A stretch of DNA of 64,000 nt from an uncultured Gemmatimonadales bacterium (GTDB lineage Bacteria > Gemmatimonadota > Gemmatimonadetes > Gemmatimonadales > Gemmatimonadaceae): the NCBI GenBank assembly GCA_963851265.1, contig CAWKNZ010000002.1, forward strand, positions 416,001-480,000, read 5' to 3'. The number at the start of each line of letters is the position of its first letter. The first letter of the stretch is position 1. The notes under the pieces are model-generated. The model did not search any database and was not told where the DNA came from. It saw nothing but the letters and a program-made list of their open reading frames with translations. The translations under genes were made by a program, and so were the position numbers. Shown here piece after piece: positions 6,115-63,812 of this stretch.

Positions 6115-7539
6115 TCAGATGTGAATCGCCCGTCCGAGCACCGCGAGCGCGGCCTCCTTCACCGTCTCGCTCAGCGTGGGGTGCGCGTGCACGGTGATCC
6201 CGATGTCCTCGCTCGCCCCGCGATACTCGAACGCCAGCACCACCTCGGCGATCAGGTCGCTCGCGTTCGCGCCCATCATGTGGCAGCCGAGGAGTTCGTC
6301 CGTCTCGGCGTCGGCGATGAACTTCACGAACCCGGTCGTCTCGCCCATCGTGCGCGCGCGACCGTTGGCGGAGAAGGGGAACTTGCCCGCCTTGTACTTC
6401 CGCCCTTCGGCCTTCACCTCGTGCTCCGCGTAGCCGACGGACGCGATCTCGGGCCAGGTGTAGACCACGCTCGGCATGGAGCGGTAGTGCATGTGCACCG
6501 GCTTGCCGGCGATCACCTCGGCCGCGACCGTGCCCTCCTCCTCGGCCTTGTGGGCGAGGAGCTTGCCGCCCACCACGTCGCCGATCGCGTAGACGGTGGG
6601 AATGTTGGTGCGCATCTGGCCGTCGGCGAGCACCTCGCCGCGCTTGCCTAACGCGAGGCCGAGCGCGGCCGCGTCGACGCCGCGGAGCGCCGGGCGGCGT
6701 CCCACCGAGACGAGCACGTAGTCGGCCTCGATCGTCTCGGGCGCGCCGCCGTCCTTCTCGATGGTGACCTGCACGACGTCGCCCCTGCGCTCGGCGCCGG
6801 TCACGCGCACGCCGGTCTTGAGTACGAGGCCCTGCTTCGTGAAGACGCGCGTCGCCTCCTTGACCACGTCCTCGTCCTGGCCGGGGAGGATCGTCGGCGC
6901 GAGCTCGACCACCGTGACCGTCGACCCGAGTCGCCGCCACACCGAGCCGAGCTCGAGCCCGATCACGCCCCCGCCGATCACGACGAGGCGCGCGGGCACC
7001 TCGGGGATCTTGAGCGCGCCGATGTTCGACAGCACGCGTTCCTCGTCGAAGCGCAGGAACGGCAGCTCGGACGAGACGGAGCCCGTGGCGACGACGACGT
7101 TGGCCGGCGCGTAGGTGGTGGTGGTCCCGTCGTGGCCGCGCACGTCGACGCGGTTCCTGCCCTCGCCCGCGGACACGAGCGTGCCGGTCCCCTTGGCCCA
7201 GGTGACCTTGTTCTTCTTGAAGAGGAACTCGACCCCCTTCGTGTTCGCGCCGACCACGTCGTCCTTGCGCTTCATCATCGCGCCGAGGTCGAACGTCACG
7301 CCGTCGTAGTGCACCCCGTGCTCGGCGGCGTGCAGCCGGGCGAATTCGTAGTGCTCGCTCGACTGGAGCAGCGCCTTGCTCGGGATGCAGCCGACGTTCA
7401 CGCAGGTGCCGCCTAACGTCTTGTCGCTCTCGACGCAGACCGTGGCGAGCCCGAGCTGCGCGGCGCGGATCGCGGCGACGTAGCCGCCAGGGCCGCCGCC
7501 GAGGATGAGGACGTCGCAGGGGGTGGGGGTGGTGCTCAT
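6115..7539 (-). CDS. lpdA: Dihydrolipoyl dehydrogenase (E3)
   Basis: GGGPGGY, redox motif GGTCVNVGCIPSK, GGGVIGLE and C-terminal HAHPTLSE. Confidence 0.97.
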   Translation of the reverse strand: MSTTPTPCDVLILGGGPGGYVAAIRAAQLGLATVCVESDKTLGGTCVNVGCIPSKALLQSSEHYEFARLHAAEHGVHYDGVTFDLGAMMKRKDDVVGANTKGVEFLFKKNKVTWAKGTGTLVSAGEGRNRVDVRGHDGTTTTYAPANVVVATGSVSSELPFLRFDEERVLSNIGALKIPEVPARLVVIGGGVIGLELGSVWRRLGSTVTVVELAPTILPGQDEDVVKEATRVFTKQGLVLKTGVRVTGAERRGDVVQVTIEKDGGAPETIEADYVLVSVGRRPALRGVDAAALGLALGKRGEVLADGQMRTNIPTVYAIGDVVGGKLLAHKAEEEGTVAAEVIAGKPVHMHYRSMPSVVYTWPEIASVGYAEHEVKAEGRKYKAGKFPFSANGRARTMGETTGFVKFIADAETDELLGCHMMGANASDLIAEVVLAFEYRGASEDIGITVHAHPTLSETVKEAALAVLGRAIHI

Positions 7540-7621
7540 ATGGTGCGGAAAGACCGTGTGATCGTGTCGAAATGATGGCGTCCCGAGCGGAGCGCGGAAC
7601 GCCGAACGCGGCCGGTCGCGC

Positions 7622-8488
7622 TCAGCCGCCCACCGCGCGTTCCGTCGCCGCCCACAGCGCGTCCTGCGCCGCCACGTCGTGGCTCGACCGCGACGACCTC
7701 GCCGCGCGCTCGTTCTTGTAGTACCCGCCCGTCGTCCCGCGGATCGCCGGATCGGATGCGAGATACACGCTCGTTCGCGCGCCCCGTTCGGGGCCGGGCA
7801 TGAACGGGCGCGCCGCGCGGAAGAGGAACGAGAACACCCCGGCGGTTCCCGCGCCGAATCCGCTCGCGATCGCCCCGGGGTGCAGCGCGTTGACCGAGAC
7901 GCCCGTGCCCACGAGGTCCCGCGCGAGGTGGTAGGCGAACCACAGGTTGGCCAGCTTGCTGCGCGCGTACGCGCCGAGCGCGGACCACCCGCGCTCGAGC
8001 TGGAGGTCGTCCGGGGCGTACCGGGTCGGCATCTCGTGCGCGCTCGACGACACCACGACCACGCGCGCGTCGCCGGTGGCCGCGCCCGCCGCGCGCAGCG
8101 GCGCGAGCAGTTCGCCGGTGAGCAGGTGGTAGGCGACGTGGTTGAGCGCCATCGTCGCCTCCACGCCGTCGACTTCGCGCCGTTCGCTGAACAGCGCGCC
8201 CGCGTTGTTCACGAGCACGTCCAGCTGCGGCACGCGCCCGCGCACGTCCGCCGCCAGCTGCCGCACGGCGGCCTGCCGCGACAGGTCGGCGAGGAACACC
8301 TCGGCCGACCCGCCGCGCCCCGCCGCCGCCGCGCGCGCCTCGACCTCGCGCCGCGCGTCGGCCGCGCGGGCCGCGTCGCGCCCGACGAGCAGGACGCGGA
8401 ACCCGCGCTCGGCGAGCGCGCCGGCGGTGGCACGCCCGATCCCGTTGGTCGCGCCGGTGACGAGCGCCGTGCGCGCGACGTCGGTCAC
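7622..8488 (-). CDS. Short-chain dehydrogenase/reductase (retinol dehydrogenase-like)
   Basis: [21 protein letters not shown] motifs; GTG start overlaps the sucB stop (GTGA). Confidence 0.9.
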
Positions 8489-9885: not shown

Positions 9886-10920
9886 GTGCGCGCGCTCACC
9901 ATTTCCGCCCACGGCGGTCTCGACCAGCTGCAGTACCGCGACGACGTGCCCGAGCCGCAGCTCGCCGGCCCGCGCGACGTGCGCGTGCGCATCGAGGCCG
10001 CGGCGCTCAACCACCTCGACCTCTTCCTACTGGGCGGGCTGCCCGGGATCACGATCACCCCGCCGTGGGTGGTGGGCTCGGACGGCGCCGGCGTGGTCGA
10101 GTCGGTCGGCGCCGAGGTCTCGCACGTGCGCCCGGGCGACGCGGTGGTCATCAACCCGGGCACGAGCTGCGGCCAGTGCGAGTACTGCCTCGCCGGCGAG
10201 GAGCCGCTCTGCCCGCGGTACCGCATCTTCGGCGAGCACGCGCCCGGCTTCTGCGCCGAGTACGCGGTGGTGCCCGCGGCCTGCGTGCACGCCGTGCCCG
10301 CGGCGATCGCGCCGGAGGAGCGCGCGGCGTTCTCGCTCGCCACGCTCACCGCGTGGCGGATGGTCGTCACGCGGGCCGCGGTGCGCCCCGGCGACCACGT
10401 GCTCATCTGGGGGATCGGCGGCGGGGTCGCGCTCGCCGCGCTGCAGATCTGCCGACGCATCGGCGCGACGACGTGGGTGACGAGCGGCAGCGACGAGAAG
10501 CTCGCGCGCGCCCGCGCGCTCGGCGCCGACCACGCGCTCAACCACCGCGCCGAGGACGTGCCGCGCGCGATCCGCGCCGCGACCGGCAAGCGCGGCGTGG
10601 ACGTGGTGATCGACTCCGTCGGCGAGGCGACGTGGCAGCGCTCGCTCGGATCGTTAGGCCGGCGCGGGCGGCTCGTGACCTGCGGCGGCACGTCGGGCCC
10701 GATGGTCGAGACCGACGTGCGCAAGCTGTTCTGGAACCAGTGGTCGATCATGGGCTCGACGATGGGGACGAACGCCGAGTACGACGCGATCGTCGCGGAG
10801 CTGCGCGCGGGGCGGCTGCTGCCGCCCGTGGACTCGACGTGGCCGCTGGAGGAGGGGCGCGACGCGTACGCGCGGCTCGAGAGCGGTGGGCAGTTCGGCA
10901 AGGTCGTTGTCCGCGTCTGA
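9886..10920 (+). CDS. Zinc-binding MDR alcohol dehydrogenase/quinone oxidoreductase
   Basis: ALNHLD, GSDGAG, structural Zn site CGQCEYC...C, GIGGGV, GKVV. Confidence 0.9.
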   Translation: MRALTISAHGGLDQLQYRDDVPEPQLAGPRDVRVRIEAAALNHLDLFLLGGLPGITITPPWVVGSDGAGVVESVGAEVSHVRPGDAVVINPGTSCGQCEYCLAGEEPLCPRYRIFGEHAPGFCAEYAVVPAACVHAVPAAIAPEERAAFSLATLTAWRMVVTRAAVRPGDHVLIWGIGGGVALAALQICRRIGATTWVTSGSDEKLARARALGADHALNHRAEDVPRAIRAATGKRGVDVVIDSVGEATWQRSLGSLGRRGRLVTCGGTSGPMVETDVRKLFWNQWSIMGSTMGTNAEYDAIVAELRAGRLLPPVDSTWPLEEGRDAYARLESGGQFGKVVVRV

Positions 10921-11137: not shown

Positions 11138-11164
11138 GTTTCCGGCGCCCTTATCTTCCCGCGC

Positions 11165-12010
11165 ATGCACCGCCTCCTCGCCTGGCTCCAGCCCGCCGCC
11201 GCCCCGGCCGTCGCCTTCGGCTCGCGCCTGCAGGACAGCTTCGCCCAACTCGGCGACCTGATCCCGAACCTGCTCGCCGCGCTCGTCATCCTCTTCGCCG
11301 GCTACCTGCTGGCCAAGCTGATCCAGCGCGGCGTCGCGCGCGTGCTCGTCCGCCTGCGGCTCAACGAGGCGCTCGCGCGCGGCGGCGTCATCTCGGCGGT
11401 CGAGCGCTCGGGCGCGCACGTGAACCCGGCGCGCATCCTCGCGAACCTCGTCTTCTGGTGCGTGATGTTCGCCGTGCTGCTCGTCGCGGCGAACGCGCTC
11501 GGCCTCAAGTCGCTCGCCGACGTCTTCGCCGAACTCGTCGGCTACATCCCGAGCGTGATCGCGGCGGTCGTGATCGTGATCGCGGGCATCCTGCTCGGCG
11601 GCTTCGTCGAGGGGCTCATCCGCGCGTCGGCCGGCACGATCCACGGCGGGCCGACGCTCGCGCGCGTGGCGCGGGTGAGCGTGGTCGTGATCGCGGTGTT
11701 CATGGCGCTGCAGGAGCTCGGCGTCGCGACCGAGATCGTCACGACCGCGTTCGCGATCCTCTTCGGCGCGGTGGCGCTCGCGCTCGCGCTGTCGTTCGGG
11801 TTAGGCAATCGCGACCTCGCGGGGGAGGTCACGCGCGAGTGGTACGAGCGCTACCGGGCGGAGCGCGCCGCGATCGACCGCGAGCAGGCGATCGAGGACG
11901 CGGAGGACGAGGCGGAGCTGGCGCGGCCGGTGACCTTCCGGCGGACGCCGCGGGGCACGGCGGCCCTGCCTAACATCGCCCCGGCGCCGGCGGAGCCGCC
12001 GCGGGCGTAG
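11165..12010 (+). CDS. Mechanosensitive-channel-like TM-helix repeat protein (CmpX-like)
   Basis: Repeated IP.L.AA.VI...G helices and C-terminal ALALSFGLG motif. Confidence 0.8.
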   Translation: MHRLLAWLQPAAAPAVAFGSRLQDSFAQLGDLIPNLLAALVILFAGYLLAKLIQRGVARVLVRLRLNEALARGGVISAVERSGAHVNPARILANLVFWCVMFAVLLVAANALGLKSLADVFAELVGYIPSVIAAVVIVIAGILLGGFVEGLIRASAGTIHGGPTLARVARVSVVVIAVFMALQELGVATEIVTTAFAILFGAVALALALSFGLGNRDLAGEVTREWYERYRAERAAIDREQAIEDAEDEAELARPVTFRRTPRGTAALPNIAPAPAEPPRA

Positions 12011-20213: not shown

Positions 20214-21935
20214 CTACCGCGTGAACCCCGCCATCGTCGCGCCCATCGCGTCGATCGTCGCCCTCGCGTTCCACCGGTCGCGGCCGTTGAAGATGAACGA
20301 GAACGCGAGCACCTCGCCGTCCGCCGCCGTGACGTAGCCGCCTAACGCGATCACCTCGTCGGTCGTCCCCGTCTTGGCGTGCAGGTTCCCGACGGCCGGC
20401 GTGCCGACCATGCGGTGCAGCATCAGCGCGCTCTCCCCGGCCACCGGGAGCGACGCGTGGAAGGCCGCCCCCCACGGCGCGCGGTGCGCGTAGCCGAGCA
20501 GCTGCACCATGGCGCGCGCGGTGACGCGGTCGAGCACCGAGAGCCCGCTGCCGTCCGTCACCGACACCGCGCCCGCCCTCGCCCCCACGCGCCCGGTGAG
20601 GAAGCGGTTGAGCAGGGCGTTGCCCGCCGCCGCCGACCCCACCGAGTCGCGCCGCGGCCCGCGCACCGCGTCGCGGAAGATGAGTTCCGCGAAGTGGTTG
20701 ATGCTCTCGCGGTTCATCACCGCCACGAGTTCGCCTAACGGCGGCGATTCGAGCGCCGCGACCGAGTCCGCGCCCGCCGGGGCCGGCCCGGCCCGCAGCC
20801 CGCCGTCCACCCGCACCCCCTCGGCGGCGAGCGCGGCCGCGACGGCGCCGGCGGTGAACGTCGCGGGGTCGGCGACCGTCAGCTGCAGGAGGCGCGCGCC
20901 GGCCGCGCGCCCCACCGTGCCGCGCGCGACCACGTGCCCGTCGGTGGCGCGGTACACGTGCACGTTCACGCCGCTGCCGCCGGTGACGCGCACGGCGTTC
21001 TCGACGCGGATGCCCGTCGTCGCCGGCTCCAGCCACACGTGCCCGTCGCCCGCGACGCCGACGACCACGATGTTTTCGTCGATCGACAGCGCGCCGAACG
21101 GCGCCGCGTAGCCCGAGCCCGCGTAGCGCGTGAGCCAGCCGTCGGGGATCGTGCGCGCCTCGAAGGCCGACGCGTCGGCCACCACGTCGCCGGTCACGTG
21201 CTTCACGCCCGCCGCCGCCACGCGTCGCGCGAGGGCGCGCGCCGGGGCGTCGTAACCCGTCCCGAATTCGGTCCCGCCCCAGAACCGCCGCGAGAACGAC
21301 GGGTCGCCGTCGCCGCGCACGACGAGGTCGCCGCGCACCGTGCCGTCGGCGTCGAGCGGTCCGGTGCGGAGCACTTCGGTCCTGAACCGCCAGTCCGGCC
21401 CCAGGCGGTCGAACGCGAGCACCGACGTGAACATCTTCATCGTCGACGCGGGCATTACCGGCGCGTCGGGCTCGCGGGTGAACAGCGTGTCGCCGCGGCT
21501 CAGCGACACCACGATCGCGCCCCAGTGCCCGTCCTCGCGCCGCGACAGGATCGTGCCGAGCGCCGCGTCGAGCTCGGCCGCGCCGCGCGGGGCGGTGTAG
21601 GCCGGGCGCGCGACGGTCACGGGGTGGGCGGACGGCCGCCGGGCACCGCGGCGCGGCTTCGCGCTCGCGTTGCCGCGGGCCGTCCCGGCCCCTCTCGCGG
21701 CTCCCCTCGTGGCGCCCTTGCCAGCTCCCTTGCCAGCTCCCTTGCCAGCTCCCTTGCCGGCGCGCGGCTTCGCGCCGCGTTTGCGGGCGGGTGGACGCGT
21801 CGGCGCGGCTTGCGTGAGGGGCGCGGCATCGACGGCCGCCGCTGCGGTGTCGGACGGGAGAGACGTGAAAGCGGCGGCCGCGAGGAGCACGGCCGCCGCT
21901 CGGCGCGGCAGGCGGATGAGGACGGACGACAGCAT
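20214..21935 (-). CDS. dacB: D-Ala-D-Ala carboxypeptidase/endopeptidase (PBP4, peptidase S13)
   Basis: PASTMK (SxxK), SIN (SxN), AKTGT, GDGDPS and DGSGLS motifs; signal peptide. Confidence 0.92.
   Translation of the reverse strand: MLSSVLIRLPRRAAAVLLAAAAFTSLPSDTAAAAVDAAPLTQAAPTRPPARKRGAKPRAGKGAGKGAGKGAGKGATRGAARGAGTARGNASAKPRRGARRPSAHPVTVARPAYTAPRGAAELDAALGTILSRREDGHWGAIVVSLSRGDTLFTREPDAPVMPASTMKMFTSVLAFDRLGPDWRFRTEVLRTGPLDADGTVRGDLVVRGDGDPSFSRRFWGGTEFGTGYDAPARALARRVAAAGVKHVTGDVVADASAFEARTIPDGWLTRYAGSGYAAPFGALSIDENIVVVGVAGDGHVWLEPATTGIRVENAVRVTGGSGVNVHVYRATDGHVVARGTVGRAAGARLLQLTVADPATFTAGAVAAALAAEGVRVDGGLRAGPAPAGADSVAALESPPLGELVAVMNRESINHFAELIFRDAVRGPRRDSVGSAAAGNALLNRFLTGRVGARAGAVSVTDGSGLSVLDRVTARAMVQLLGYAHRAPWGAAFHASLPVAGESALMLHRMVGTPAVGNLHAKTGTTDEVIALGGYVTAADGEVLAFSFIFNGRDRWNARATIDAMGATMAGFTR
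21715..21758 (-). repeat. In-frame 12-bp tandem repeat (GKGA) in the dacB N-terminus
   Basis: CCCTTGCCAGCT x3 plus a partial copy. Confidence 0.85.
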
Positions 21936-24039: not shown

Positions 24040-25364
24040 ACCAACGGCCCGAGCGCGACCGCGGCGAGCGACCCGCCGATCGCGCTCGCGCCGTACTTGC
24101 CGCCCGCGACCGAGTACGCGGTCGCGGTGACGAACACGAGCGCGGGGAGGGCCGCGAGCGCGGCCACCCCGCGCGTGCCTAACGGAAGGCGGAACGGCCC
24201 GCGCAGCCCGGGCTCGGCGCGCCGCAGCTGGACCAGCGCCCCGAACTCCAGGAACATCGCGAGCGCGTACAGCAGCGCGTCGGCGACGACGAGCTCCCGG
24301 AACGGCAGCACCGTGAACGCCGAGTAGAACAGCGCCGCCACGACGACCGCCGTGCGCGGCGTGCCGCGCGCGTCCACGCGCGCCAGCCGTCCGGGGAGCA
24401 ACCCGTCTTCGGCCAGGACCAGCGGCACGCGGCTGAAGCTGAGCAGCAGCGCGTTGTAGAGCGCGAGCGCGCTCACCATCCCCGCGACGGCCACCGCGGC
24501 CGCGAGCACCGGGCCCGCCGCGCCGCCCGTGGCCCGCGCGATCGCCGGCCACGCGCCGTCCGTCCACGTCGTCCAGTCCGACGCGGCCAGCGTGGGCAGC
24601 AGCGGCACGAAGTAACTCGCCGCGACGAGCGGTACGGCGATCGCGAGCGCGCGCGGGTACGCGCGCCCCGCGTCCTCGATCTCGCCGAGTGCGGTGCTCG
24701 CGTTGTCCCAGCCGAAGTAGTTCCACATCGCGATCGAGAGCCCGACCCCGAGCCCGGCGAACGGCGAGGCGCCCGGCCCCGATCCGACCCGCGTGAACGG
24801 CGCCCACGGCGCGTGCCACGGCGTGCCCGTCACGCCCGCGCGCCCGCTCGCGATCGCCGCGACGCCGATCGCGCCGAAGGTCGCGAGCACGAAATAGCCC
24901 GCCCACGTGCCGACGCGCCCCACGCGGAGCGCGCCGCGCAGGTTGATCGCGGTCGCGCCCCAGATCACGGCGAGGCGCACCGCCCACACGCCCCAGCCGG
25001 GCAGCCCGGGCGCGAACCACGCCAGATACTGCGTGAACAGCACCGGGTAAATGGCCATGTCGACGAGCGAGTACAGCCACGTGTACCAGCCGTTCTGGAA
25101 GGCCCAGAACGGGCCGAACGCGCGCCGCACCCAGCGGTAGTAGCCGCCCTCCTCGGGCAGCATGCTGGCGAGCTCGCCGATGAGCAGCGCCTCGGGCACG
25201 CTCCACAGCACCGGGACGACGGCGAGCAGCAGCAAGGCGAGCCCTGGCCCGACCTCGGCGACGAGCGTCTCGGTGGTGAACGCGCCGCCCGAGACGGTGA
25301 AGAAGAGCAGGAAAACGACGGCGCGCGTCGTGAGCGTGCGGCGGAGCCGGACCGGAGTGGTCAA
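23991..25364 (-). CDS. APC-family amino acid/polyamine permease
   Basis: SGGAF..E, ELASMLPEEGGYYRWVRRAFG, WNYFGWD, RGPFRLP; many TM helices. TTG start inferred. Confidence 0.88.
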   Translation of the reverse strand: MTTPVRLRRTLTTRAVVFLLFFTVSGGAFTTETLVAEVGPGLALLLLAVVPVLWSVPEALLIGELASMLPEEGGYYRWVRRAFGPFWAFQNGWYTWLYSLVDMAIYPVLFTQYLAWFAPGLPGWGVWAVRLAVIWGATAINLRGALRVGRVGTWAGYFVLATFGAIGVAAIASGRAGVTGTPWHAPWAPFTRVGSGPGASPFAGLGVGLSIAMWNYFGWDNASTALGEIEDAGRAYPRALAIAVPLVAASYFVPLLPTLAASDWTTWTDGAWPAIARATGGAAGPVLAAAVAVAGMVSALALYNALLLSFSRVPLVLAEDGLLPGRLARVDARGTPRTAVVVAALFYSAFTVLPFRELVVADALLYALAMFLEFGALVQLRRAEPGLRGPFRLPLGTRGVAALAALPALVFVTATAYSVAGGKYGASAIGGSLAAVALGPLVYARAARRRSSSVRAT

Positions 25365-31231: not shown

Positions 31232-31353
31232 CGTCTTGTGCATACCCCGGACGCCGCGTCTGGTGCACGCCCGTCACACTCGTGACGATGCCGAATCCCG
31301 TTCGCCGGCATGCCCGCTCCCCCGCCTCTGGTACCGCAGGTACGTTGGTCGCC

Positions 31354-43786: not shown

Positions 43787-46735
43787 TCAGAAGCTCGGGC
43801 CGAGGAGCATGGCGTTGAGCACCAGACGGTCCATGCTCCGTACCCACCCGCGGAAGGTCGGGTCGTTCTCGAACAGCACGACGTGGCCGCGCCCCAACGA
43901 CTCCTCGACGACGAGTGCGGTGTTGCGCAGCAGCCGCTCGGTGTTGCCGGGCCACGTGAACCCGGCGCGCGTGAACGCGCCGGTGCGCGGGAACACCGCC
44001 ACGTTGTTGCCCTCGCGCGAGAGGCGGAGGAAGGTGCCGCCCTCGACGAGCGCCGTGACGCGCGGTTGCTCGTAGCCGAAGGTGAGCCAGTGTGTGCGGT
44101 CGAGCACCGCGTCGAACATCGCGCCCGGCACCGGGGCCGGTGTGTTGGGCGCGGCGCTCGGGCTGGTCACCGCGAGCAGGTCGGCACGCGGGGCCGCGGT
44201 GTCGGCGGTCGCAGGGCGGGCGGCGTTGGAGGTCGTGTCGCCGCCGACTCGGCGCGCGCTGGTGAGGTCGACCTCGGGTCGCACGGCCCATTCGGTCGCG
44301 CCTCCCATCGTCACGAGCGTGCCGCCGGCGCGAGCCCACACCTTGAGTCGGGCGAGGGCATCGGCGCCCACCGCACGGCCGATCGCGCCGGGCGAGCCGT
44401 CGGGCATCACGATCACGTCGAAGCGCGACAGGTCCCCGCCGGTGAGCGCGGCCCAGTTGAGGTGCTCGAAGTCGACGTTCCAACGCCGGTCCATCGTCCA
44501 CCAGAGCGCGCCGAACGCCGTCTGCGACAGGCCCTCGTCGCCGACGACCGCGATGCGCGGCCGCTTGAGTGCCGCGATCGCGGACGATCCGATGCCGAAC
44601 TGCGCGCGCTCGGTGTACGCGGACGCGACCGGCGTCACGGGGACGCCGCGCTCGCGCGCGAGGCGGTCGAGCGTCGTGCCTAACGTCTGCGCGTTGCGGG
44701 ACGCGAGGACGACGAACGTCCCGCGCGGCCAGAACCGGCCGCCGGCCTCGATCGAGTCGGTGGCGACGTTGACGCGGTAGCCGGAGGCCAGCAGGCGGAA
44801 GGCGAGCGGGGCCGCCCCGCTGCGCGCCGGGGCGAAGAGGTAGGCGGTCGGCGACGACACGGCGCCGGTGACGCCGCCGCCGAGCGGCGTCGGGAGCGGT
44901 TCGGTGGCGAGCGGTTCGGCGCCGGGCGGGCCGTAGGGCGCGGCGGCCGGACCGGCGAGCGCGACCGGGCGCGCCGCGTACGCGAGGCCCGCGTATTGCG
45001 CGCCGCCTCCGGGCGGCGCCGCCGCGACCGCCGGCCCCGGGAGCGTCGTGTTAGGCGCCTCGAGTAGCCGGCCGCCGGCCGCCGGCGCGTCCTCCGTCCA
45101 GTACGCCTCGACGCCGAACGCGACGGGGAGCGACCACGCGGTGACGTCGTAGAATTCCGCCTCCTCAGCGCTCGCGTTGCTGCCGCGGCGCAGGTTGCGC
45201 CGGAAGCGCTCGATCTGCCGGCTGGCGAAGGCGGAGTCGAGCGTGGGCGCGGGTTCGAGGATCGCGCGTGCCAGCCGGCCCTGCGGCTGGGCGAGGTCGA
45301 TCACGTACGCGCCCGGCTCGAAGCGGTGGGCGGCGCCGGCCGCGCTCGATGCTACCACGTCGGAGCCCGCGCCGTAGGCGTGCGTGCGGGCGCTCGCGGA
45401 CGCGCCGGCGGTCTGGCGCACCTCGATTCCCGCGCGCACGAGGGCCGTCGCCAGCTCGGCCGCGCGCTGCGGGTCGGCACCCGGGACGATCACGACCCCG
45501 CGCATGCGTCCGCTCCGCCCCTGCTCGACCGCGCGACGCCGGAACGCGCTGTAGTCGATCAGACGCTCGGCGCCGCGCGCGGCGGTGACCTCGATGGTTG
45601 CCATCGCGGCGGTCCAGTGCTTCGCGATGCCGTCGCGGAACGAGAGGAGCGAGCCGTCCTCGCGCCGCCACGAGATGCCCTTCCAGCCGCCGCCGTCCGT
45701 CTCGTACGTCATCCCGGTCGCGCCGTTGAGCGAGGGCCAGGTGTCCCAGTAGCCCGGGTAGTACAGGTCGAACTCGTTGCGCACGAAGTACTGCCAGCCC
45801 TGCGCGTCGAATGCCGCCGCGTTGGCGCGGCCGATGGCCGACAGCCACTTCTCGCTTTCCGTCCCGATGTTGACGTTGACCGGGCGCGCCGCGGGCGGGA
45901 AGAAGTACGTCGGGACCTGTCCGTGCTGGTCGACGGTGACCTGCGGGTGCCAGCGGAGCATGCCGCCCATGATCGCCTGGACCTCGGGCTGCGTGCTCGC
46001 GATCACGTCGCGGTTCATGTCGAACCGGTAGTGGTTGAAGCGGCCCTGGATGCTCCACGGCTCGCGGTGCTCGTAGGCGTCGTTGGCCGGGTCGCTGCGC
46101 GCCACCGAGTTGTACCACACGGCGAAGCGCTCGTGGCCGTCGGGGTTGGAACTGGGGTTGATGACGACGACGGCGTTGCGGAGCGCGGCGAGTGTGGCCG
46201 GCTCGGTGCTCGCGGCGAGTTGGTAGAGGAGCTGCATCCCGCTCTCGAAGCCGGGCGACTCGTTGCCGTGCACGCTCTCCGAGATCCAGACCACGGCGGG
46301 CGTGCGCCGCGCGATCGCCTCGGCCTCGCCGGCGCCTAACGTCCTGGGGTCGGCGAGGCGGGCGAGGTCGGCGCGGATCGCGTCGAGGCGCGCGACGTTC
46401 TCGGGCGCGCTGACGACGAAGACGCGCATCCGGCGCCCCTCGTGCGACGCGCCGATCTCTTCCACGCGCACGCGGTCGCGCGCCGCGTCGGCGATGGCGA
46501 GGAGCACGCGCTCCTGCTCGCCGTACTGCGTGTTGCGCGCGCCTAACGAGTACCCGAGCAGCGCCTCGGGGCGCGGGACCTCGGGGCGGTACGGACCGCG
46601 GGCGGTGAAGTCGAAGCGCCGGTCGTCGCGCGCGGCGGTGTCGCGGGCCGCGGGGAGGAGCGGCTGTGCGGCGGCGGGGACGGCGGTCGCCGCGAGGAGC
46701 AGGGCTGCGGCGAGGGGACGGGCGAGTGGGCGCAC
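43787..46735 (-). CDS. Secreted M14 zinc carboxypeptidase
   Basis: Signal peptide, VHGNE, NPDG, DMNRD, DQHG. Start approximate. Confidence 0.88.
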   Translation of the reverse strand: MRPLARPLAAALLLAATAVPAAAQPLLPAARDTAARDDRRFDFTARGPYRPEVPRPEALLGYSLGARNTQYGEQERVLLAIADAARDRVRVEEIGASHEGRRMRVFVVSAPENVARLDAIRADLARLADPRTLGAGEAEAIARRTPAVVWISESVHGNESPGFESGMQLLYQLAASTEPATLAALRNAVVVINPSSNPDGHERFAVWYNSVARSDPANDAYEHREPWSIQGRFNHYRFDMNRDVIASTQPEVQAIMGGMLRWHPQVTVDQHGQVPTYFFPPAARPVNVNIGTESEKWLSAIGRANAAAFDAQGWQYFVRNEFDLYYPGYWDTWPSLNGATGMTYETDGGGWKGISWRREDGSLLSFRDGIAKHWTAAMATIEVTAARGAERLIDYSAFRRRAVEQGRSGRMRGVVIVPGADPQRAAELATALVRAGIEVRQTAGASASARTHAYGAGSDVVASSAAGAAHRFEPGAYVIDLAQPQGRLARAILEPAPTLDSAFASRQIERFRRNLRRGSNASAEEAEFYDVTAWSLPVAFGVEAYWTEDAPAAGGRLLEAPNTTLPGPAVAAAPPGGGAQYAGLAYAARPVALAGPAAAPYGPPGAEPLATEPLPTPLGGGVTGAVSSPTAYLFAPARSGAAPLAFRLLASGYRVNVATDSIEAGGRFWPRGTFVVLASRNAQTLGTTLDRLARERGVPVTPVASAYTERAQFGIGSSAIAALKRPRIAVVGDEGLSQTAFGALWWTMDRRWNVDFEHLNWAALTGGDLSRFDVIVMPDGSPGAIGRAVGADALARLKVWARAGGTLVTMGGATEWAVRPEVDLTSARRVGGDTTSNAARPATADTAAPRADLLAVTSPSAAPNTPAPVPGAMFDAVLDRTHWLTFGYEQPRVTALVEGGTFLRLSREGNNVAVFPRTGAFTRAGFTWPGNTERLLRNTALVVEESLGRGHVVLFENDPTFRGWVRSMDRLVLNAMLLGPSF

Positions 46736-50678: not shown

Positions 50679-50779
50679 GGTCGGGCGGCTGGTGGCGGTG
50701 TGAAACGGGTCGAGTGCCTAACGCGTGCCGGTCGGCGCCGGCCCGGCCAGGTCGGCCGGGCGGCGTCGGCGGCGCGGGC

Positions 50780-54014: not shown

Positions 54015-54983
54015 ATGCGCATCCTCGTCAGCCGCACCGACCGCCTGGGCGACGTCGCGCTCACGCTGCCCCTGTGCGGGCTGCTGAAGCACCGGCTCGG
54101 CGCCACGGTGGTCTTCCTCGGCCGCGACTACACGCGCCCCGTGCTCGAGGCGAGTGCGGCCGTCGACGAAGTGCTCGAGTGGGACGGCGTCGCGGACGCG
54201 TCGCTCGCACGGCGACGCGAGGCGCTCCGCGCGGCGCGCGCCGACGTCGCGCTGCACGTCTTCCCGCGCGCGGCCGTGGCGTGGGCCGCGCTCGCCGCGC
54301 GCGTGCCGCGCCGCGTCGGGACCACGCACCGGTGGTACCACTGGCTCACGTGCAACGTGCGCGAGCCGCTCGAGCGCCGCGCGTCGCCGCTGCACGAGGC
54401 GCAGCTCAACGTCCGCCTCGCGCGCACGCTCCTCCCCGCCGCCGACCTCGCGCTCGCGCCGGACGCGCTGGCGCCCTACGCCGCGCTCGCGCCGCGCGTG
54501 CCGGTGCCGGTGTGGGCCGCCCCGCTGGTCGGCGGCGACCGCTCGTCGCTCGTCGTCCACCCCAAGTCGTTAGGCAGTGCGCGCGAGTGGCCGCTCGCGC
54601 GCTGGCGCGCCCTGGTCGACGCGCTGCCCGCGGACCGGTATCGCGTGCTCGTCACGGGCTCGGCCCAGGAAGGGGCGGCGATGCGGGGGTGGCTCGACGC
54701 GCTGCCGGCGCACGCGCACGACCTCACCGGCCGGCTGTCACTCGCCGAACTGCTGGCGGTGCTCGCGGCCGCGGACGGGGTGGTGGCAGCGAGCACGGGG
54801 CCGCTCCACCTCGCGGCCCTGCTCGGCACGCCGACTCTGGGATTGTTCGCGCCGGTGCGCCCGGTGCACGCGGGGCGCTGGGCCCCGATCGGCACGCGGG
54901 CCGAAGTGCTGGAGGCGCAGATGGACGCGATCAGCCCGGCGTCTGTCGCGGCACGGGTCGAGGCGTGGGTGCCGACGCGCTAG
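54015..54983 (+). CDS. Glycosyltransferase family 9 (heptosyltransferase-like)
   Basis: [11 protein letters not shown]...[21 protein letters not shown]. Confidence 0.9.
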
Positions 54984-57437: not shown

Positions 57438-58153
57438 CGGTCGGCGCCGTCGCGGTCGCCGTGCATGGGCCGGCTCGACGGGCAGATGGCGGCGAGCGTG
57501 CATGCCCCGCAGCGCGGCGTGCGCGCGTCGCACACGCGGCGGCCGTGGAAGATCAGCCGGTGCGAGAGCATCGCCCAGCCGTCCTGTGGGAAGAGCGGGA
57601 TGAGCTCCTGCTCGATCGTGACCGGGTCGTCGCCGCGGGCGAGGCCCAGCCGCCGGCTGAGCCGGTGGACGTGCGTGTCGACGGTGACGCCCGCGTTGAT
57701 GCCGAACGCGTTGCCGAGGATCACGTTCGCGGTCTTGCGCCCGACCCCCGGTAGCTCGACGAGCTCCGGCATCGTGCGCGGCACCTCGCCGCCGTGCCGC
57801 TCGACGAGGGCGCGGGCCATGCCGACGAGGCTCCGCGCCTTGTTGCGGAAGAAGCCCGTGGGCTGCACCAGGCGCTCGACGTCGGCCACGTCGGCGGCGG
57901 CGAGCGCGCGCGCGTCGGGGTAGGCGGCGAAGAGCGCGGGCGTGGTCAGGTTCACGCGGCGGTCGGTACACTGCGCGGAGAGGATCGTGGCGCAGAGCAA
58001 CTCGAAGGGGTCGCGGTGGGTCAACTCGCAGTGCGCGTCCGGGTGCGCGTCCGCGAGGGCCTGCCACACGCGCGCGGCGTGCGCGGGCATGTCCCGCTTG
58101 AGGATGCGCCCGGGCGCGCGCGGCCCGGCGGCCCTCGCACGCCTAACGGGCAC
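57434..58153 (-). CDS. nth: Endonuclease III
   Basis: LSAQCTD, HhH motif [16 protein letters not shown], 4Fe-4S motif C-x6-C-x2-C-x5-C. Confidence 0.95.
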
Positions 58154-60180: not shown

Positions 60181-60205
60181 GGCCTGTCGCGGGCGGCGAC
60201 GTGCC

Positions 60206-60310
60206 GTGCGGATCCTGCTCGACACGCACGCACCGTTCGGGTACCGCGCCGGCAGCGGCGCGCGACATTCAGCAGACGCCCGCTGCGAGCTGCCGGACGT
60301 CGGAGCCCTC
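60206..60310 (+). pseudogene. Truncated VapC/PIN toxin remnant
   Basis: MRILLDTHA start right after the antitoxin remnant; similarity fades after about 30 codons. End approximate. Confidence 0.68.
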
Positions 60311-60424
60311 GCCGCCGACACGGCGTTAGGCGTACATCGTCGCGGCATCGCCTCGCGGCGGTGGGCGGCACGCCGCACCCGGCGGCGCGGAGAACCGCCC
60401 GGCGCGCGCCGCGCAGTGTTCCTG

Positions 60425-62899
60425 CTATGGCCTCGCGCCGAACCTCCGCGACGCGACTGCCTCGTCGCGTCGCGGGGCCGCCGCAGCCGAGTCGCCGCGA
60501 AGCAGTCGTGCGCGCGCCGCCCACAGCGCGCCGTCGGTCGTCGCGACGGCTGCGCCGTTCGCCATCCCGAACGCGCGAAGCCGCTCGGCGCGGTCGAGCA
60601 CTTCGGCCCACCGGCCGCGCGCGGCGAGGGCTTCGAGCGCGTTGTCGACGATGTCGACCCGCACCGGTGCGACCACTTCGGGGAGCGCGTCGAGGACCGC
60701 CAGCGCGCTGTCCGCCTCGGCCGATGCGGCCGCGGTGTCGCCGCGCCGGAGCAGTGTGAGCGACCGGTACGCCCGGAAGTGCGCCGCCTCGCGGCTGTTC
60801 GCGCCGTAGCCGATCGCCGCGAGCCGGATCCCCTCGCGCGCGACCGAGTCGGCGGCCGCGAGGGCGCCGGCGCCGCTGAGCGCCCCCTCGTGGCCGAGCA
60901 TCGCGTCGAGCCGCTCGACGGAGAGTGGAGCGCCGAGCGAGTCCATGATCGCGATCGCGCGGACGTAGTACGTGTCGGTCGAGTCGTGGCGCGTCGTGCC
61001 GAGCACGCGCCACGCCCACGCGCGCGCGGGTGTGGGCGCGCGCGTGCGGGCTCGCTCGATCGCGAGCACCTCGGTCGCGAGCGAGTCGGCCGTGCGCAGG
61101 TCTCCGCGCGCGAGGGCGAGCGTCGCGCGCGCGCCGACGACGCGGGCGCGCAGTTCGCCACGTACCGGGTCGCGTGCCGCCTCGTCCGCGGGAAGCGCCG
61201 CGCACGCCGCCTCGAGGCGGCGTTGGGCGGCGGCGAAGCCATTCGTGCGCATGGCGGCCAGCCCCGCCGCGAGGCTCGCCTCGGCGTACGCCGTGGACCG
61301 CGTGCCGTAGCTGCTCTGCGCAAGTATCACCGCCGAGTCGAGCACGGCGGCCGCCTCGCGCGCCCGATCTTGGGCGACGTAGGTCGCACCGATCGCGGTG
61401 TAGAGCCGGGCGCGCGTGCGCGGGTCCGCGGCGAACGCGGTGGGCACGCGTCCGGCCGCACTGTCGAGCGCCTCGGCGAGCGAGGCGTGCGGGCCGAGGC
61501 GCGTGAGCACGCCACCCGTAGTCACGTCGGGCGTGCCCAGCAGTTGCTGGAGGAACGACGCGACGCGCTCGGAGCGCTCGGCCTCGCGCCGGCTCTCGCG
61601 CGCCTGCCAGAGCGCGACGCCGCTCCCGCACACGAGCGCGGTCGCCGCGACGGCGAGGCCCGCGGCGAGCGCGCGTCGCCGACGCACGAACACGCGCGCC
61701 CGGTAGGCGAGCGTGTCGGGGCGGGCGAGGACGCGGTCGCCGCGCAGGTACCGCCGCACGTCGTCGGCGAGCGCGTCGACGGTCCCGTAGCGTCGCGCGG
61801 GTTCCTTGCGCAGGGCGGTGCGGACGATCGCGTCGAGGTCGCCGCGGAGCGTGCGCGCGAGGCGCGTCGCCGAGGGCGCGCCGCGCGCGCGGGCCGGCGC
61901 GTCGTCGCCCCGCGCGACCACGTCGGGGAGCGGCGGCACCGGACGGTCGAGCACGGCCACGATCGCCTCCGCCGGGCTCAGCTCGTCGGCGTCCAGCGGC
62001 GTGTGGCCGGTCAGCAGCAGGTGCAGGAGTGCGCCTAACGCGTACACGTCGGCCGCGGTCGTCACGCCGCCGCCGCGCACCTGTTCGGGCGCTGCGAACG
62101 CCGCCGTGAAGGGCGAGACGCCCGCCCCGGTGAGCGTCCCCGGGCGATCGGCCCCGTCGAGGAGCTTCGCCACGCCGAAGTCGAGCAGCTTGACCGTGCC
62201 TTCGCCGGTGACGAAGATGTTGGACGGCTTCAGGTCGCGGTGGATGACGAGCGCGCGGTGGGCGTGGGCGACGGCGGCGCACGCCTGCCGGAAGAGGTCG
62301 AGCCGCGCCGGAATCGTGAGGCGCCGCGTGTCGCACCAGGCGTCGATCGGCTCGCCCTCGACGAACTCCATGACGAGGTACGGCAGGCCCTCGGCCGTCG
62401 CCCCGCCGTCCAGTAACTGCGCGATGTTGGGGTGCGCGAGCGAGGCGAGGATCTGGCGCTCGCTCTGCAGCCGTCGCGTCATGAGCGTGCTGTCCGCGTT
62501 GCGCCAGACGGTCTTGATCGCCACCCGGTGCGTGTACGTGCCGTCGACGCGCTCGGCCTCGTACACGGTCCCCATGCCGCCCTCGCCGACGCGCCGCACG
62601 ACGCGGTAAGGGCCGAGTTGGCGCCCCTCGAACGGCGGCGCCTCCGGTGCGCCGGCGGGGCCCGAGGCGGACGGGTCGGCGAGCAGCGCGGCCCACCCTG
62701 CCCCCGTGCCGGCGTGACGTTCGAACCGCTCGCCCGCCGCCGCATCGGCGGCGAGCAGGCGGCGGACCTCTCGGAGGACCGCCTGGTCGGCGGCGCTCCG
62801 GGCGAGGTGGGCGTCGCGCTCCGCCGCGGGGAGGGCGGCCGTCTCCCAGAAGAGCTGCTTGACGGCCGGCCAGTGCTCCGCGGCGGGGGCGCGCGCCAT
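60425..62899 (-). CDS. Membrane Ser/Thr protein kinase with TPR-like C-terminal region
   Basis: GEGGMGTVY, VAIK, HRDLKPSN, DFG, APEQ, DVYALG, a TM helix and helical repeats. Confidence 0.93.
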   Translation of the reverse strand: MARAPAAEHWPAVKQLFWETAALPAAERDAHLARSAADQAVLREVRRLLAADAAAGERFERHAGTGAGWAALLADPSASGPAGAPEAPPFEGRQLGPYRVVRRVGEGGMGTVYEAERVDGTYTHRVAIKTVWRNADSTLMTRRLQSERQILASLAHPNIAQLLDGGATAEGLPYLVMEFVEGEPIDAWCDTRRLTIPARLDLFRQACAAVAHAHRALVIHRDLKPSNIFVTGEGTVKLLDFGVAKLLDGADRPGTLTGAGVSPFTAAFAAPEQVRGGGVTTAADVYALGALLHLLLTGHTPLDADELSPAEAIVAVLDRPVPPLPDVVARGDDAPARARGAPSATRLARTLRGDLDAIVRTALRKEPARRYGTVDALADDVRRYLRGDRVLARPDTLAYRARVFVRRRRALAAGLAVAATALVCGSGVALWQARESRREAERSERVASFLQQLLGTPDVTTGGVLTRLGPHASLAEALDSAAGRVPTAFAADPRTRARLYTAIGATYVAQDRAREAAAVLDSAVILAQSSYGTRSTAYAEASLAAGLAAMRTNGFAAAQRRLEAACAALPADEAARDPVRGELRARVVGARATLALARGDLRTADSLATEVLAIERARTRAPTPARAWAWRVLGTTRHDSTDTYYVRAIAIMDSLGAPLSVERLDAMLGHEGALSGAGALAAADSVAREGIRLAAIGYGANSREAAHFRAYRSLTLLRRGDTAAASAEADSALAVLDALPEVVAPVRVDIVDNALEALAARGRWAEVLDRAERLRAFGMANGAAVATTDGALWAARARLLRGDSAAAAPRRDEAVASRRFGARP

Positions 62900-62912
62900 C
62901 TATCGCAAGGCG

Positions 62913-63812
62913 TTAGGCACGCGCGCGCCGCCGGGCGAGCGTGCCGAGTGCTCCGACGCCCGCGGCCGTGAGCGCCCAGGTGGACGGCTCGGGAGCGGTG
63001 GTCACCCCGCCCGACCCCGCCGGCACGAGACGCGACGCATAGATGGTGGAGATCTGCGCCGCTGTCAGGTCCGTGTTGAACACCGCCACGTCGGCGATCG
63101 CGCCGTCGAAGTAGCGGCCGCCGAACACGTTACTCTGCCCGATGTAGAAGGGCGCGGAGTTGGTCCCGTGCGGACCGGGCGTGTCGCCGACCCCGCCCGC
63201 CAGGGCCCCGTCGATGTACACATAACGGTCGACGCCCGTGGCGAACGTGGCCGCCACGAACACCCACCGGTTTAGGTCGCTGCTGCCGAACGGAGTGTAA
63301 GACGTGGTGTTGCCACCGGCTTCGGTGTAGAAATGGAGGAGGTTGTCCGCCGGGTTAATCTGGAGGTCGAAGTCATTGCCGCCATTCGACTCGCCAGCGA
63401 TCGAGAACGCGCGGCCCTGCGCGGAGGGGAGCGAGGCGAGGTTGATCCACGCGACGATGCTGCCGCTGTTGCCGATCCCGCCGAGGAGCGGATTGCTGCC
63501 GCCGGCGGTGGCGTACTTCTGCCCGGTCGCGCCGTTGTTGAGGAGCAGTGCGGAGCTCGACGGGTCGCTGATGTTCGGTCCGCTGCCGGGGCCGCCGACG
63601 GTGGCGCCGTTCTGGAGCGTGCCGGTATAGCCGTTCACGACGCTGTTGGCCTGCGCCGATTGCGTGAACGTGTAGTACGCGAGCAGGCCGGGCGTGCTCT
63701 CGACGGTCGCGTTGTAGCCCTGCTGCGCGCCGGCGTGGGCCGCGACCGCCGCGAGCGCGAACGTGGTGAGGGCCGCCCGGCGCAGGCCGGACGTGGGGGG
63801 CAGTGCGGGCAT
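62913..63812 (-). CDS. PEP-CTERM protein with LamG/concanavalin-like domain
   Basis: Signal peptide, WVFVAATF...YIDG...IG...FDGAIADVAVFN, C-terminal APEPSTWAL-TM-RRR. Confidence 0.92.
   Translation of the reverse strand: MPALPPTSGLRRAALTTFALAAVAAHAGAQQGYNATVESTPGLLAYYTFTQSAQANSVVNGYTGTLQNGATVGGPGSGPNISDPSSSALLLNNGATGQKYATAGGSNPLLGGIGNSGSIVAWINLASLPSAQGRAFSIAGESNGGNDFDLQINPADNLLHFYTEAGGNTTSYTPFGSSDLNRWVFVAATFATGVDRYVYIDGALAGGVGDTPGPHGTNSAPFYIGQSNVFGGRYFDGAIADVAVFNTDLTAAQISTIYASRLVPAGSGGVTTAPEPSTWALTAAGVGALGTLARRRARA

Follow-up and report, generated by a model that had tools for sequence, protein, structure and literature searches.

GTTAGGC, a hyper-abundant DNA word in Gemmatimonadaceae genomes with features of an uptake-sequence-like self tag

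Why should a single seven-letter word, read in most cases through a rare TTA codon, recur across the housekeeping genes of an uncultured Gemmatimonadales bacterium? We address this question starting from a window of 64,000 nucleotides (positions 416,001 to 480,000 of contig CAWKNZ010000002.1, the whole stretch of DNA analysed), in which the first-pass annotation had listed 25 exact copies of GTTAGGC/GCCTAAC. All of its coordinates proved correct, with 10 copies on the plus and 15 on the minus strand:

6646..6652, minus strand: sense in lpdA-like gene, A-L-G (GCG TTA GGC)
7411..7417, minus strand: sense in lpdA-like gene, T-L-G
10653..10659, plus strand: sense in zinc alcohol dehydrogenase gene, S-L-G
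11800..11806, plus strand: sense in MscS-like gene, G-L-G; the sole copy with a 5' G
11968..11974, minus strand: antisense in MscS-like gene, CCT-AAC (P-N)
20340..20346, minus strand: sense in dacB-like (S13 peptidase) gene, A-L-G
20733..20739, minus strand: sense in dacB-like gene, P-L-G
24177..24183, minus strand: sense in amino-acid permease gene, P-L-G
26156..26162, plus strand: intergenic, flanked by the permease start and the end of leuS
28325..28331, minus strand: sense in leuS, P-L-G
31890..31896, plus strand: sense in aspartase/fumarase-class lyase gene, L-L-G; GCTCGGC in 3/3 same-genus relatives
32970..32976, plus strand: sense in aspartase/fumarase-class lyase gene, L-L-G
33902..33908, minus strand: sense in MCP gene, L-L-G
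35473..35479, minus strand: sense in MCP gene, GTT-AGG-C frame (V-R)
38481..38487, plus strand: sense in ctaD (COX1), L-L-G
44678..44684, minus strand: sense in M14 peptidase gene, T-L-G
45050..45056, plus strand: antisense in M14 peptidase gene, CCT-AAC (P-N)
46334..46340, minus strand: sense in M14 peptidase gene, T-L-G
46541..46547, minus strand: sense in M14 peptidase gene, S-L-G; retained in 3/3 same-genus relatives
50716..50722, minus strand: intergenic, upstream of HlyD-family gene
54569..54575, plus strand: sense in heptosyltransferase gene, S-L-G
58141..58147, minus strand: its TAG is the stop codon of PolX-like gene (GT-TAG-GC); overlaps the start region of HhH-GPD gene
60325..60331, plus strand: intergenic, flanked by the end of the Ser/Thr kinase gene and the start of the PolX gene
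62033..62039, minus strand: sense in Ser/Thr kinase gene, A-L-G
62912..62918, plus strand: its complement gives the TAA stop of PEP-CTERM gene (GCC-TAA-C)

Shuffling the window 100 times with dinucleotide composition preserved yielded a mean of 2.05 copies (sd 1.40, maximum 6), and none of the 100 shuffles reached 25. As annotated, a pyrimidine stands 5' of the word in 24/25 copies and a purine 3' of it in 23/25, and the two near-matches pointed out earlier are genuine, each one base off (ATTAGGC at 3439 and, at 47074, CCCTAAC, which reads GTTAGGG on the opposite strand). By our own gene models, the class of in-frame xxG-TTA-GGC copies is present but holds 17 members rather than the 19 claimed, three copies rather than two are intergenic (26156, 50716, 60325), and one is read in the GTT-AGG (Val-Arg) frame. 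The two antisense CCT-AAC copies and the two on stop codons (58141 on TAG, 62912 on TAA) are as described.

Genome-wide, GTTAGGC is the top 7-mer, with 1,762 copies against 96.1 expected (885 on the plus and 877 on the minus strand; ~0.4 per kb, rising to ~1.3 per kb in relatives), and the top 8-mer is the same word preceded by C, CGTTAGGC (1,396 against 50.1). The excess is also seen against within-gene shuffling of synonymous codons, from which 0.85±0.79 copies would be expected in the coding sequences of the window and 67.2±7.2 in those of the whole genome, compared with 19 and 1,060 observed. The word is sharply defined: enrichment is lacking in 20 of its 21 one-off words, of which 18 stand at ≤1.2 times expectation, GTTAGAC at 1.64 and GTTAGTC at 1.45 times; GTTGGGC, at 2.2 times, is the sole outlier. 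The hyper-abundance of GTTAGGC in dozens of independently assembled genomes rules out an assembly artefact, and within the literature searched the signal is, as had been proposed, undescribed.

The GTTAGGC signal operates on DNA, not on codons. Selection on DNA rather than on TTA translation had been put forward on account of the antisense and non-coding copies and the fixed context, and antisense, non-coding and stop-codon copies do carry the same flanks: these do not differ between the six classes, with 175 non-coding copies among them, position -1 being C in 75–94%, and no extended flanking motif was found around genomic copies. In our set of 2,591 crude gene calls, compatible peptide sites are filled by the antisense word at 198 of 1,273 x-P-N sites (15.6%), as against 763 of 8,532 x-L-G sites (8.9%) for the sense word, 64 of 1,551 for [CSRG]-L-T and 35 of 3,219 for V-R-x. 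As many as 147 stop codons lie inside GTTAGGC (89 of 316 TAA and 58 of 592 TAG), and the word is denser outside genes (0.72 per kb) than within them (0.31 per kb), convergent spacers being the densest class of all at 1.61 copies per kb. The same gene calls show that TTA is indeed roughly "nearly absent elsewhere", with 763 of 1,072 TTA codons (71%) falling within the word; this rule, together with the single tRNA-Leu(UAA) gene of the genome, would suit translational control through a rare codon (bldA-like) or a codon-pair effect, a reading that is refuted by the shared flanks of the antisense, non-coding and stop-codon copies, sits badly with TTA codons located in housekeeping genes, and has in our judgement practically no chance of being right.

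Copies avoid one another within ~500 bp and are relatively evenly spaced. When sites were redrawn among compatible peptide sites, 65.6±7.6 gaps of <200 bp and 149.4±9.8 gaps of <500 bp were expected, compared with 12 and 82 observed, and none of 300 simulations gave counts this low. When the 1.83-Mb contig is divided into 100-kb bins, word orientation goes with that of the genes and not with the replichore, in agreement with the annotated lack of Chi- or KOPS-like polarity. Inverted copies paired within 60 bp amount to only 3 + 3 pairs, with no terminator pairing.

The word is also better conserved than comparable sequence, being kept in 57 of 121 orthologous-site comparisons (0.47) against a mean of 0.33 for 1,133 other 7-mers (GCTCGGC, 0.31; GTTGGGC, 0.18). 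At sites of gain, the ancestral state lay at least two changes away in 16 of 18 cases; we give this no weight, because the two-step word GCTCGGC is far commoner than any one-step word, and multi-base "jumps" are not relied on here. An effect on the proteome is visible as well, the PN/NP ratio being 1.04 and the ALG/GLA ratio 1.47 in this genome, against 0.67 and 0.86 in a small comparison set of pooled word-poor loci from relatives (167,241 aa).

The depletion in acquired DNA that the signal should show if it marks self is borne out: as the GC content of the windows compared increases, density climbs from 2.0 to 6.2 copies per 10 kb. A 45-kb stretch of core genes around parAB-gidA holds no copy of GTTAGGC at all. 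A conserved word-free zone at the origin/parAB was ruled out, this region not being a word desert in any of five other word-rich genomes (G001, G004, G049, G148, G150), and a consensus search for parS-like sites found none and carries no weight. Judging by its identity to same-genus genomes (73–81%, with flanks at 82–89%), the segment appears to have been imported, although it could be an assembly chimera instead. If it was recombined in, as it seems, DNA can enter by at least one route that does not strictly depend on the word, a point against the self-tag reading.

Some 40% of Gemmatimonadaceae genera are rich in GTTAGGC, and hardly any other part of the phylum is. On a FastTree phylogeny the abundant genera are scattered, the sister genus is word-poor, and density is graded ~100-fold between genera. 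Our family survey covered 151 genomes (46 word-rich, 105 word-poor), with a smaller set of 31 (10 rich, 21 poor). Word-poor genomes show no avoidance of the word (8 observed against 10.2 expected in 641 kb). In one soil metagenome run, 19% of sampled words were present, a figure that supports no habitat claim.

From the anatomy, abundance, spacing, conservation, proteome effect and taxonomic range of the word, all observed directly, we tentatively favour, at somewhat short of even odds, an uptake-sequence-like self tag, (C)GTTAGGC, maintained through biased uptake and/or recombination in transformation. The tag would be a "self" word at the level of DNA, 8 to 9 bp long, read on double-stranded DNA in either orientation by a protein. 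Its chromosome-wide build-up would proceed through a bias acting on fragments and not through local mutation bias, the likeliest source being preferred uptake and/or recombination of word-bearing fragments in natural transformation, a molecular drive akin to that of the Pasteurellaceae USS and the Neisseriaceae DUS. Uptake or recombination would presumably be the biased step, and the graded density between genera may reflect how strongly each lineage is driven.

The USS core of Pasteurellaceae is 9 bp long; the DUS of Neisseriaceae has 10–12 bp, and its reader in Neisseria is the minor pilin ComP. Like these, GTTAGGC occurs in hundreds to thousands of exact copies, equally on both strands, and its use of reading frames is set by available peptides and codon cost. 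The likeness to uptake sequences and to HIP1 raised by the annotation is supported by spacing, encoded peptides and convergent-spacer density: in the literature (PMC7811141, PMC2817400), the hallmarks of uptake sequences include relatively even spacing, enrichment of encoded peptides, scarcity in foreign DNA and an excess outside genes, and GTTAGGC shares these, including the excess in spacers downstream of genes. Unlike USS and DUS, it belongs to a different phylum, for which our searches found no literature on competence or biased uptake, is shorter (7 fixed bases and 1–2 biased ones) and has no AT-rich flank. It also departs from DUS in that inverted copies at terminators are lacking here, that one identical word serves scattered genera with no dialects found, and that no pilus gene tested tracks it.

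HIP1 (GCGATCGC) is a palindrome read by two methylases. GTTAGGC is, like it, hyper-abundant and patchy in its phylum, but is asymmetric and not its own reverse complement, and occurs in a genome without PF00145 and PF01555 methyltransferases. A VirB4-type T4SS, reportedly a correlate of HIP1, is found in only 2/151 family genomes and is rejected as a determinant. The HIP1 octamer occurs 15 to 300 times more often than expected and is conserved both inside ORFs and between them (PMC5861425), and its function, still under debate, is now proposed to be that of an uptake recognition sequence (PMC13756078).

A gene present only where the word is abundant was not found among integron integrase, ComEC, secretin, Eco57I-like methylase, pilus-operon protein, VirB4 and RecC. 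The idea that poor genomes have lost their competence genes is rejected, ComEC being present in 31/31 genomes and secretin in 147/151 family genomes; together with the pilin operons of this genome, these supply machinery in line with uptake. A 792-aa pilus-operon protein looked promising on 5 genomes, but among the 151 its 77 matches fell, by our hand count, in 27/46 rich and 50/105 poor genomes; a 420-aa protein of the operon matched only in G043 (poor) and G049 (rich), and a 398-aa one, found in 5/5 genomes, gave no separation between rich and poor. A more specific version of the self-tag reading, which we hold possible but doubtful, is that GTTAGGC is a working uptake/self-recognition sequence of one family-wide specificity, its density graded by drive, and that its reader would be an Xer/IntI-type or pilus-tip module sharing the specificity of attC.

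Against a self tag stand the abundance of the same word in scattered genera, a word-poor sister genus, the lack of dialects, of inverted terminator pairs and of an extended flanking motif, and the failure of every gene tested to track the word; over-dispersed spacing and conservation fit a selected array of binding sites equally well. In such an array, a protein that organises the chromosome or tracks along DNA, of the nucleoid-associated or SMC/partition-related kind, would bind the word, with selection keeping about one site per 0.5 to 3 kb. The strong deficit of close pairs, the better conservation of sites than of synonymous alternatives and the use of both orientations are in its favour, and HIP1 has been given the same role in PMC5861425 on grounds of conservation and periodicity. 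However, the word is scarce in the sister genus and in ~60% of family genera, a gradation of ~100-fold is odd for an architectural requirement, chromosome regions show no pattern beyond the sole 45-kb desert that the five other rich genomes do not share, and we know of no candidate protein. We consider this explanation rather unlikely.

Sites could instead be made and kept by a methyltransferase recognising the word together with methyl-directed short-patch repair, reportedly Elhai's model for HIP sequences. Enzymes of the Eco57I/MmeI type read asymmetric 6–7-bp sites, and this genome encodes a methylase-like protein of that type (1,141 aa). HIPs are also accompanied by cognate methyltransferases (PMC4390886). 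What makes this model quite improbable is that this genome (94% complete) contains no PF00145 (C5) or PF01555 methyltransferase and its hsdM-like genes are broken, while the Eco57I-like protein occurs in 147/151 family genomes, rich or poor, so that its presence is no determinant. Nor does any column or variable domain separate rich from poor in 41 orthologues, the alignment including 40 of 146 family orthologues, 22 from rich and 18 from poor genomes, chosen among the listed matches of full length; at the best column, 57% of the rich share one residue that none of the poor has. Moreover, a local repair bias does not predict avoidance within 500 bp, and one-off words show no depletion of deamination partners, except for the CTAG-containing GCTAGGC.

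As an asymmetric 7–8-mer of sharp specificity, over-represented in core DNA, GTTAGGC resembles Chi and KOPS, and might act as a recombination hotspot or as a self-protection signal for a helicase-nuclease on linear DNA. Unlike those, it lacks a replication-linked strand skew, its local skew following gene orientation. Mutual avoidance, which is not known for Chi sites, counts against this reading, and RecC, rejected as a determinant, was not found in the genus and occurs in 19/151 family genomes, 15 of them word-poor. According to a preprint, HIP1 improves transformation in a homology-dependent manner, which could speak for a Chi-like role; on balance we regard such a role as very unlikely.

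Identity with the integron GTTRRRY core, noticed in the annotation, is confirmed letter for letter with the attC R' core and mostly extends to the preceding C: in integron arrays of relatives of the same order, R'' is GCCTAAC and R' is CGTTAGGC. One such array (G021:C95) holds 29 GTTAGGC copies in 27 kb, most ending an attC-like repeat of ~85–100 nt, with GCCTAAC 81–98 nt upstream in 18 of the 28 listed. Genomic copies might thus be secondary (attG-like) sites or binding sites of an IntI/Xer-type recombinase, integrases being common in the order (TIGR02249 above cut-off in 18/31 relatives). Yet these are rich and poor alike, so that the integrase is rejected as a determinant; an intact gene is found in 3/10 rich against 12/21 poor genomes, and none in rich G002, G008 and G018, and the gene is split in the present genome. 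Unlike attC, the genomic words are single, with no attC-like flanks or imperfect palindrome and nearly no inverse partner nearby, and occupy synonymous positions of conserved genes independently of integrase presence. We find this link highly improbable.

To our knowledge, uptake sequences are known from only two bacterial families. Should the self-tag reading be true, this would be a third bacterial lineage with an uptake sequence, and no earlier one would come from a soil phylum in which competence is not known; the identity with the integron attC core would point to an Xer/IntI-type or pilus-tip DNA-binding module as reader. A sharp word that alters codons, stop codons and peptide frequencies in a widespread soil family would offer a new, independent system for studying the marking of self DNA by bacteria, both its mechanism and its purpose. 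It would also be a simple sequence marker by which foreign stretches of these genomes could be spotted, the 45-kb one among them, and a practical handle, in that placing it on transforming DNA could make Gemmatimonadota genetically tractable.

Word-poor lineages yielded no DUS-like dialects, two candidates having been checked and found false. Local peaks of TAGCTCA and GTAGAGC, which presumably match the tRNA D-arm consensus, were rejected, TGAGCTA showing no genome-wide enrichment, with 198 copies in 7.1 Mb, and the CGTCTCAG of G169, a tandem octamer, lies in palindromic arms rather than being dispersed. A further candidate word, TGCCGTT, is seen in the word-poor lineages L005 and L007.

All 25 coordinates assigned to GTTAGGC/GCCTAAC in the window by the first-pass annotation were right, and the two near-matches it listed are both single-base variants of the word. 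Dinucleotide shuffles of the window contained 2.05±1.40 copies (0/100 reached 25), and within-gene codon shuffling left 0.85±0.79 copies in coding sequence compared with 19 observed, an enrichment over the synonymous null. The reported flanks were also reproduced, with a 5' pyrimidine in 24/25 copies and a 3' purine in 23/25. The class counts held in part: two antisense CCT-AAC copies and two copies over stop codons stand, while our own gene models place 17 copies in frame as xxG-TTA-GGC (19 had been claimed), three between genes (two had been placed outside intact genes) and one of the 25 in the GTT-AGG frame.

Across the whole 4.60-Mb assembly (G000; 12 contigs, 73% GC), in which the window spans C2:416001-480000, the word occurs 1,762 times, 885 on the plus and 877 on the minus strand (0.38 per kb), against 96.1 expected under an order-2 Markov model, making it the most exceptional 7-mer. 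The most exceptional 8-mer under the same model is CGTTAGGC (1,396 vs 50.1 expected). The signal is sharp: 1,762 of 1,925 TTAGG pentamers lie within GTTAGGC, and 20 of 21 one-off words (single-base variants) are not enriched, GTTGGGC being the sole exception at 2.2x, with GTTAGAC (1.64x) and GTTAGTC (1.45x) slightly raised. Genes were called with our own crude caller choosing by GC3 (2,591 ORFs), and because these cover only ~74% of the genome, gene-based counts are lower bounds. Even so, 1,060 copies fall in coding sequence, compared with 67.2±7.2 after genome-wide synonymous codon shuffling.

As had been proposed, the TTA codon is mostly confined to the word (763/1,072 TTA codons lie inside GTTAGGC), and a single tRNA-Leu(UAA) gene was found in G000. 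A signal at the level of DNA, not of TTA translation, is borne out by the fill rate, defined as copies per peptide site able to carry the word synonymously, which is higher for antisense x-P-N than for sense x-L-G.

Fill rate of peptide sites able to carry the word
x-P-N (antisense): 198 of 1,273 filled, 15.6%
x-L-G (sense): 763 of 8,532 filled, 8.9%
[CSRG]-L-T: 64 of 1,551 filled, 4.1%
V-R-x: 35 of 3,219 filled, 1.1%

It is further borne out by the flank preferences, which do not differ between frames, between strands or between coding copies and 175 that are clearly non-coding (position -1: C 75–94%, T 6–17%; position +1: G ~50%, A ~25%, T ~5%); the outer flanks carry codon periodicity only. 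In our gene set the word also supplies 89/316 TAA and 58/592 TAG stops. Two genes of the window are recorded here.

57434-59855, minus strand: PolX-like gene (HHH_8, thumb and PHP domains) with its TAG stop inside a word copy, overlapping the start of an HhH-GPD glycosylase gene by ~10 bases
31186-33252, plus strand: aspartase/fumarase-class lyase with an N-terminal Pfam cNMP_binding domain (residues 102-189), an unusual fusion

Bin by bin, local strand excess follows gene orientation and there is therefore no independent replichore polarity, in line with the earlier claim. Coding sequence holds 0.31 copies per kb and DNA outside our coding mask 0.72; spacers flanked by convergent genes reach 1.61 per kb, compared with 0.65 for divergent and 0.62 for tandem pairs. 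Density in 10-kb windows climbs with GC content, from 2.0 at 66–69% to 6.2 above 77%, although the word is AT-rich. Inverted pairs no more than 60 bp apart number only 3 + 3. Copies avoid each other: against a null in which equally many sites were redrawn from the compatible peptide sites of each class within each 100-kb bin, short gaps were rare, and 0/300 simulations gave counts as low as those observed.

Short gaps between neighbouring copies, observed and under the spacing null
<100 bp: observed 6, null 34.3
<200 bp: observed 12, null 65.6
<300 bp: observed 27, null 95.2
<500 bp: observed 82, null 149.4

The longest word-free stretch of the genome spans 45,086 bp (contig 1, 182876-227962) and has normal GC. 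It carries core genes, including pgm, gidA/mnmG, parA, parB and mnmE, and was for that reason rejected as a genomic island. In five other word-rich genomes compared, the corresponding region contained the word in 5/5, at 23 to 52 copies per 80 kb. Identity to two same-genus genomes is 73–81% inside the stretch vs 82–89% in its flanks. The simplest reading would be homologous replacement by DNA of a word-poor relative, or else a chimeric assembly; in both cases the stretch would be foreign DNA without the word, which would agree with the anticipated depletion in acquired DNA.

Conservation in relatives was assessed in three same-genus genomes with ~83% DNA identity to G000 (80–99 kb aligned). 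The word was kept in 57/121 site comparisons (0.47), which agrees with the predicted conservation, against a mean of 0.33 for other 7-mers (n=1,133), 0.31 for the two-step synonymous alternative GCTCGGC and 0.18 for GTTGGGC. Turnover of sites nevertheless remains high: among the 91 aligned across the four genomes, the word is present in a single genome at 45, in two genomes at 22, in three at 15 and in every one at 9, and unfilled sites hold the synonymous words GTTCGGC, GCTCGGC and GTTGGGC. The proteome has shifted toward word-encoded peptides. The PN/NP ratio is 1.04 in G000, 1.12 in the same genus and 0.67 in a pool of word-poor relatives (167,241 aa), and the corresponding ALG/GLA ratios are 1.47, 2.07 and 0.86.

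LeuS relatives assign G000 to Gemmatimonadaceae, the closest being a Roseisolibacter (76% amino-acid identity). With genomes called rich where the word exceeded 1.5x its reversed control, 46/151 family genomes in ~25/64 genera are rich by hand count; in the genus of G000, 5/5 are rich. The genome comparisons of this analysis include rows for genomes marked unpublished (G011, G045, G210 and G237), all word-poor, and none of the conclusions depends on them. Density is graded ~100-fold across the family and the trait is mostly uniform within a genus, an exception being a genus in which two genomes have 3,896 and 4,141 copies but a third, which is more diverged, has 66. None of 92 genomes sampled from the phylum outside the family was above control; exceptions in other samples were G030, from another family (345 vs 147), and loci L037 and L041. 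In a LeuS tree (FastTree) the sister of the window is a Roseisolibacter locus with 0 copies in 14.6 kb, and rich loci are scattered. In word-poor relatives the word is neither avoided nor enriched, at 8 copies over 641 kb where 10.2 were expected. Two apparent alternative words in word-poor lineages were false leads, and TAGCTCA and GTAGAGC near leuS (loci L003, L030 and L062) are local peaks, not genome-wide words; they match tRNA D-arm words, as in clustered tRNA genes. In G169, the genome of locus L031, the octamer CGTCTCAG is found on many contigs in short tandem runs that make up the opposed arms of palindromic elements.

A local mutation or repair bias leaves unexplained the mutual avoidance of copies, the lack of the word in foreign DNA and the preference for spacers downstream of genes. 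All three would be accounted for by a force that acts on entire DNA fragments. For uptake sequences, passages of PMC7811141 trace fairly regular spacing, and rarity in newly acquired DNA, to molecular drive, and passages of PMC2817400 describe tripeptide frequencies approximately doubled and frame use set by codons. The resemblance to uptake sequences suggested in the first-pass annotation extends to spacing, foreign-DNA scarcity, peptide shift and frame use. Because the features match one by one, we rank first, if tentatively, the possibility that the word is a self tag for uptake or recombination. One shared specificity, its strength varying by lineage, might then account for the word being identical, its density graded and the uptake genes universal. 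An array of binding sites kept by selection ranks second and seems to us rather unlikely; methylation-repair, Chi-like and integron readings are placed lower.

Of about ten candidate readers, proteins that might recognise the word, none has a presence/absence pattern that tracks it across rich and poor genomes, and this includes three pilin-operon proteins.

Candidate readers and their distribution
ComEC: 31/31 genomes
Secretin: 147/151 family genomes
VirB4: 2/151 family genomes
RecC: 19/151 family genomes; not found in the genus of G000; 3/3 in an apparent sister genus
Integron integrase: over the cut-off in 18/31 genomes; intact copy in 3 of 10 rich genomes vs 12 of 21 poor ones
Contig 7: 582086-585511 (L119:2086-5511), minus strand: Eco57I/MmeI-type methylase-like protein, 1,141 aa; 147/151 family genomes

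The Eco57I/MmeI-type protein was rejected as the determinant, as the orthologues of 23 rich and 18 poor genomes are told apart by no residue; it shows ~50% identity across those 147/151 genomes with no hypervariable domain, and such broad conservation is unusual for a restriction-modification-type enzyme. Among DNA methyltransferases, G000 has no PF01555 or PF00145 match and its hsdM-like genes are broken. The N6_Mtase matches, frame-broken at the end of contig 7 (771474-772495) and the start of contig 9 (923-1858), could be remnants of one repeated, decayed type I system.

Literature searches matched only unrelated papers for the word itself, and those joining the phylum with competence or over-represented oligomers yielded nothing on the word. 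What this analysis adds is the test of spacing, the shift in peptides, the stop codons supplied by the word, the word-free segment that appears imported, the range across the phylum and the negative results for candidate readers.

The noted identity with the integron core proved exact in a same-order relative. In G021 (contig C95, 1-27000; L174+L175) there are 29 GTTAGGC copies in 27 kb at 61.5% GC, most of them ending a ~85–100-nt repeat, with GCCTAAC 81–98 nt upstream in 18/28 copies inspected. By its repeat structure this is an integron cassette array, its attC sites apparently ordinary, with CGTTAGGC as R' core, and the Gemmatimonadaceae word is therefore identical to the integron core found locally. 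Counts skewed to one strand in several genomes of the family of G021 suggest integron arrays likewise. The genomic copies in G000 lack attC structure, and integrase presence does not track the word, both of which count against an integron reading. The link may at most hint at what sort of DNA-binding module could read the word. In G000 itself the integron integrase gene (L122, contig 6: 3005-6044) is split, with residues 2-265 encoded at 5244-6044 and, ~2 kb away, residues 260-313 at 3005-3166, and appears to be interrupted by an insertion.
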